Of a DNA stretch of 64,000 nt, positions 51,346 through 51,361 are shown piece after piece; within the stretch, counting starts at the first letter, position 1; every line of letters begins with the position of its first letter. The DNA lies in assembly GCF_050920415.1 (NCBI RefSeq), contig NZ_CP169309.1, one strand, 5' to 3'. Origin of the DNA: Escherichia coli (GTDB lineage Bacteria > Pseudomonadota > Gammaproteobacteria > Enterobacterales > Enterobacteriaceae). Position numbers and translations under genes: made by a program. The notes below the pieces were generated by a model. That model made no database searches and was not told the origin of the DNA. It saw only the letters and a program-made list of their open reading frames with translations.

Positions 51346-51361
51346 TGTGATGACGATCACA
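51346..51361. promoter_or_regulatory. CRP-binding-site-like palindrome in the hpt-gcd divergent region
   Basis: TGTGA-TGACGA-TCACA, perfect match to both CRP half-sites with 6-bp spacer, about 60 bp upstream of gcd. Confidence 0.55.

Follow-up and report, generated by a model that had tools for sequence, protein, structure and literature searches.

We have described here a high-affinity cAMP-CRP operator that is, very probably, common to two back-to-back divergent promoters in Escherichia coli, with gcd repressed and hpt annotated as activated from the same DNA. Our own results here are the site with its score, its placement against mapped transcription starts and its conservation. The literature supplies the direction of regulation and the evidence that CRP binds in vitro, and how CRP excludes polymerase sterically at gcd and makes contact at hpt is our inference. 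The window analyzed, a 64,000-nucleotide stretch of E. coli DNA, contains TGTGATGACGATCACA at 51346-51361, a TGTGA-N6-TCACA motif with both half-sites perfect, situated within the 205-bp spacer between the minus-strand gene hpt, which starts with an ATG at 51217, and the plus-strand gene gcd, for which the annotated start is the ATG at 51423. This spacer shows 100% identity to its counterpart in E. coli K-12 MG1655. Of 5426 complete E. coli genomes, 5424 contain the hpt-gcd region. Window positions (x) convert to MG1655 positions as 192648 - x, which places the site center, 51353.5, at MG1655 141294.5. The two genes and the operator are arranged as follows:

50681..51217, minus strand: hpt coding sequence (hypoxanthine phosphoribosyltransferase)
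51343..51364, no strand assigned: 22-bp two-fold symmetric cAMP-CRP site AATTGTGATGACGATCACACAT, with the 16-bp core at 51346-51361 and the center at 51353.5
51423..53813, plus strand: gcd coding sequence (PQQ-dependent quinoprotein glucose dehydrogenase), with a translation starting MAINNTGSRR

The initial annotation had recognized a perfect consensus CRP site in the hpt-gcd divergent region, and this is confirmed; searching both strands of the window reveals no second copy of the exact TGTGA-N6-TCACA motif, for which dinucleotide-preserving shuffles give a chance expectation of 0.05 per window on average, with at least one match in five of 100 shuffles. For scoring we used a 22-bp symmetrized log-odds matrix built from parts 1-2 of Table S4 of Shimada et al. 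2011 (PMC3105977), which supplied 126 distinct curated sites; each was re-registered within ±3 bp beforehand, and the gcd/hpt site was left out. The consensus of this matrix is AATTGTGATCTAGATCACAATT. Rather than the low score that would speak against a CRP site, the segment 51343-51364 returns a very high one, 18.56 bits of a maximum of 22.89, a value that just one of the 126 curated sites (median 9.5 bits) reaches or exceeds. It ranks first in the window (z = 5.1), 5.5 bits above a runner-up at 13.08 bits. The runner-up matches, at 12.1-13.1 bits, lie at 8504-8525, 8788-8809, 10236-10257 and 62433-62454. We also note that the segment 30918-30939 (GGTGACGGAGTTCACC), which scores 9.3 bits, corresponds to the RegulonDB sfsA-dksA CRP site, likewise annotated at -65.5.

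The hpt-gcd site is a known RegulonDB element and is not new. RegulonDB site ECK120011452 is listed both as a gcd repressor site at -31.5 (AATTGTGATGACGATCACACAT) and as an hpt activator site at -65.5 (Table S4, PMC3105977), and it agrees with the site described here in sequence, center (MG1655 141294.5) and flanking genes, with no difference between the two. Genomic SELEX with purified cAMP-CRP recovers the same 16-mer, centered at MG1655 141294 (Table S3, PMC3105977), the main text of that study names gcd and hpt as known CRP targets retrieved by SELEX, and gcd-hpt is one of 11 divergent pairs placed under a single CRP site (PMC3105977). Because the site is present in both RegulonDB and the genomic SELEX data, there is nothing new in its discovery, and its main value in this respect is as a positive control, in which a genuine high-affinity regulatory site was correctly recognized from the sequence alone. 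A search of the open literature for direct statements of gcd or hpt regulation yielded little, and in the ChIP-exo supplement of PMC5957442 hpt appears only in the transcription-unit table, which makes no statement on CRP occupancy.

The gcd promoter elements lie within and immediately downstream of the operator:

51350..51355, plus strand: putative gcd -35 hexamer ATGACG, separated from the -10 by an 18-bp spacer and located within the CRP site (conservation 0.717)
51374..51379, plus strand: gcd -10 hexamer TATAAT, from a promoter scan and given as the same element in PMC3946193 (conservation 0.992)
51383..51403, plus strand: ArcA box TTGCTACTAAAATATTAATGA, covering the gcd start (MG1655 141245-141265; PMC3798270 supplements)
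51385, plus strand: gcd transcription start, MG1655 141263, from start-site profiling (PMC3415461), with a 38-nt leader

The same promoter (ATGACG-18-TATAAT) has been described previously (PMC3946193). The start at MG1655 141263 (PMC3415461) places the CRP center at -31.5, matching the RegulonDB distance, and the operator spans from about -42 to -21 and includes the -35 candidate. The operator thus overlaps core elements of the mapped gcd promoter, as occlusion of polymerase requires, and its position is compatible with the mapped start, the second point on which the initial annotation could be checked. Since the -35 hexamer is poorly conserved, the gcd promoter is probably driven mainly by its consensus TATAAT with a weak -35, and occlusion may affect polymerase contacts generally rather than a defined -35 element. 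The mechanically called gcd reading frame begins at a TTG at 51405 as opposed to the annotated ATG at 51423, and the transcript start at 51385 is compatible with both.

Negative control of gcd by cAMP was reportedly described by Yamada et al. in 1993. With glucose present, gcd mRNA falls to 0.4-fold in a strain carrying a cAMP-independent CRP* allele (PMC2743635), and glucose raises gcd mRNA 2.5-fold in the CRP* strain and 1.1-fold in the wild type in rich medium (PMC2743635). The CRP* array data agree in direction with repression of gcd, the wild-type effect is modest, and the 1.1-fold change in the wild type suggests that repression may be modest or condition-dependent. The direction of regulation is drawn from the RegulonDB table (in PMC3105977) together with this array. 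The proposal that the site confers cAMP-dependent control on periplasmic glucose oxidation is supported by the RegulonDB gcd entry as to control, with the qualifications that its sign is negative and that hpt is also an annotated target. Because the site overlaps the -35 region, cAMP-CRP would lower periplasmic glucose oxidation, unlike the usual activation of catabolic genes.

The gcd promoter is also subject to direct repression by ArcA (PMC3798270). The supplements of that study report a ChIP peak and a binding region that runs from -2 to +30 relative to the gcd start, and their tables of ArcA-regulated operons give gcd an expression ratio of 20. In the spacer alignment described below, the ArcA-box region is conserved across genera (0.805).

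On the other side of the operator, the hpt promoter is defined by two features:

51288, minus strand: main hpt transcription start, MG1655 141360 (Cappable-seq, score 59.3, PMC4782308)
51295..51303, minus strand: hpt extended -10 TGgTATACT, read from the sequence (conservation 0.954)

An hpt start is also placed at 141361 in PMC3415461. The CRP center is at -65.5 from the start at 141360, the same as the RegulonDB distance, and the extended -10 is at the canonical distance from the start, with a poor -35 region (CCGCGA). Neither this distance nor the -31.5 at gcd corresponds to the -41.5 of class II promoters, and -65.5 does not coincide with the class I positions near -61.5, -71.5, -82.5 or -92.5. 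The established class I activation peak is at -61.5. Further class I peaks occur at -71.5 and -82.5, and the class I spacing requirement is looser where a promoter has an UP element or a consensus extended -10 (PMC4132738). The hpt promoter has such a spacing-relaxing feature in its conserved TGgTATACT, and the A/T-rich stretch downstream of the CRP site is moderately conserved (0.693). The one point that is mildly unusual is the conserved, off-phase distance of -65.5 to hpt, between the class I peaks.

Several other elements in the spacer were considered. A second hpt start at 141354 (PMC3415461) was not used, as it directly follows the -10 hexamer and is missing from the Cappable-seq data, and a terminator-like hairpin at 51282-51294 was set aside as chance, since it lies across the hpt start where conservation is poor. 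A predicted hpt promoter, TTAATA-18-TATAGG (51372-51400, PMC3946193), opposes gcd and overlaps its -10; it misfits the main mapped hpt start, and at best explains a minor Cappable-seq start at MG1655 141286 (window 51362, minus strand; PMC4782308), which it fits roughly and which falls within the CRP site, such that CRP would lie just downstream of it. In the hpt 5' leader, the block at 51224-51246 (AACCATATGATTTAAAAACAAATCAC, plus strand) is strongly conserved, with a majority fraction of 0.87 in 102 spacers, and we found no function assigned to it.

What the present work adds is a comparative picture in which the site and its spacing to both promoters are held in more than 100 species of Enterobacteriaceae. 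A DNA-pattern scan of species-representative genomes, with the N-terminal coding region of gcd (GGSWYYPI) as its anchor, gave 120 loci, 113 of which encode the Gcd N-terminus, and 104 of these adjoin a divergent hpt. These loci span more than 25 genera of Enterobacteriaceae, including Escherichia, Salmonella, Citrobacter, Enterobacter, Klebsiella, Raoultella, Kluyvera and Kosakonia, as well as Cedecea, Buttiauxella, Siccibacter, Atlantibacter and Mangrovibacter. Of the 103 spacers analyzed, 102 have their best CRP matrix match in the same location, at a distance of 134.5-140.5 bp from the ATG of hpt, and most score 16-20 bits. Both half-sites are perfect in 94 of 102 spacers, with the N6 taking 29 different forms. 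We aligned 102 distinct spacer sequences, the window's own and 101 taken from other genomes. No other 5+5 set of columns in the spacer is as conserved as the half-sites, for which the majority fraction is 0.991, versus 0.694 for the N6 and 0.733 overall, and conserved half-sites flanking a variable N6 are the pattern of a CRP-regulon site. Both -10 elements also form conserved blocks, as do the ArcA-box region and a portion of the hpt leader. Measured from the CRP center, the gcd TATAAT lies at 20.5 bp in 96 of the 97 spacers with that exact hexamer. Among the 68 spacers with an exact TATACT at hpt, the corresponding distance is 53.5 bp in 59, 54.5 bp in eight and 52.5 bp in one.

There are a few departures from this picture. 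In the Citrobacter freundii group (C. werkmanii, L002; C. youngae, L024; Citrobacter sp. On2M, L045; and C. braakii, L063) the CRP site is at the same position and is weaker, at 9-12 bits, with the form TGTGAC-N4-GTCACG, and no other clade sampled shows consistent degradation of a half-site. In Tenebrionibacter intestinalis (L082) the hpt-gcd spacer is 742 bp as opposed to the usual of about 205 bp, and the gcd -10 and start block are retained together with a CRP site 20.5 bp upstream that has lost one half-site (CGTGACGCATAACCTT). We also note that the PMC3415461 supplement records no start at the conserved gcd TATAAT promoter in Klebsiella pneumoniae MGH78578; the sole start assigned to gcd in that strain is 527 nt upstream, within hpt and antisense to it.

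The geometry of the region points to a very probable model for the action of a shared operator. A CRP dimer bound at -31.5 would lie over the -35 region of gcd and the upstream portion of the promoter spacer, and would thereby keep RNA polymerase off the gcd promoter, giving repression at high cAMP; the position at -31.5 fits occlusion and not class II activation at -41.5. ArcA would provide a second and independent block over the gcd start under low oxygen. The same CRP dimer would be located at -65.5 upstream of the hpt extended -10 promoter with its poor -35, and activation of hpt would likely occur through contact with the RNA polymerase alpha C-terminal domain, with the extended -10 relaxing the spacing rule.

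An alternative is that the effect on hpt is indirect, with CRP making no contact with polymerase there but evicting it both from the gcd promoter and from the weak overlapping opposing promoter, and thereby freeing shared upstream DNA to the benefit of hpt transcription. The location of -65.5 off the canonical class I positions is in keeping with this, as are the minor start at MG1655 141286 with its predicted promoter and the separation of the two main starts by just 97 bp, from which upstream contacts of both polymerases would be expected to overlap. However, the spacing of CRP is known to be less critical at extended -10 promoters (PMC4132738), and the CRP to hpt -10 distance varies by no more than 1 bp either way across 68 spacers, which suggests that the geometry is directly constrained. 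We thus regard an indirect gain at hpt as unlikely, and less likely than direct contact. A related toggle, in which one CRP dimer shuts off gcd by occlusion and raises hpt through freed upstream DNA or a non-canonical contact that the extended -10 would permit, is similarly doubtful; it starts from the conserved -65.5 placement at hpt, a helical face that is 'wrong' for activation of the class I type.

Two further readings concern gcd and the palindrome itself. Activation of gcd by CRP in a class II-like manner, as at typical catabolic genes, would accord with the weak -35, a feature shared with activator-dependent promoters, but the site is at -31.5 from the mapped start and not at -41.5, no alternative -10 yields -41.5, and the second promoter-like match (TTAAAA-18-TAAAAT) would give about -48.5. 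With the RegulonDB mode being that of a repressor and gcd lowered by CRP*, we consider activation very improbable. Least credible of all is that the palindrome is a chance match or the target of another regulator. Window shuffles do yield such a match at the low frequency noted above, but SELEX with purified CRP recovers the site (PMC3105977), CRP binding has already been reported both in vitro and in vivo, the score exceeds that of nearly all curated CRP sites, and the half-sites are kept while the N6 varies in the 102 spacers from more than 25 genera. A shared cAMP-CRP operator acting on both promoters is the reading we favor.

Both halves of this arrangement have counterparts among known CRP-regulated promoters. 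Repressor sites that overlap promoters are found at metY (-19.5), lpd (-18.5), azuC (-18.5), pncB (-37.5) and aceBAK (-30.5) (PMC3105977), and gcd resembles these in having CRP positioned over core promoter elements with an annotated repressor role, although the gcd site is much nearer to consensus than most of them and also serves a divergent promoter. The use of one CRP dimer in a spacer to act in both directions is seen at araBAD-araC, gltA-sdhCDAB and glpEGR-glpD (Shimada 2011, Fig. 4A), although for these pairs, and for xylAB-xylFGHR and rhaT-sodA, both sides are activated in the curated list, whereas gcd-hpt has one side repressed and the other activated. The hpt promoter is similar to class I promoters (lac at -61.5, and the synthetic CC(-71.5) and CC(-82.5)) in having CRP upstream of a promoter with a poor -35, here with an extended -10 of the kind that relaxes spacing, but differs in that -65.5 falls between the standard positions; dependence on AR1 and the alpha C-terminal domain is putative.

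The shared operator offers a reversed form of the usual CRP logic, in which glucose dehydrogenase would be turned down at high cAMP and free for expression when glucose is plentiful. If the doubtful toggle should prove to be true, then purine salvage would be coupled inversely to periplasmic glucose oxidation across the Enterobacteriaceae.
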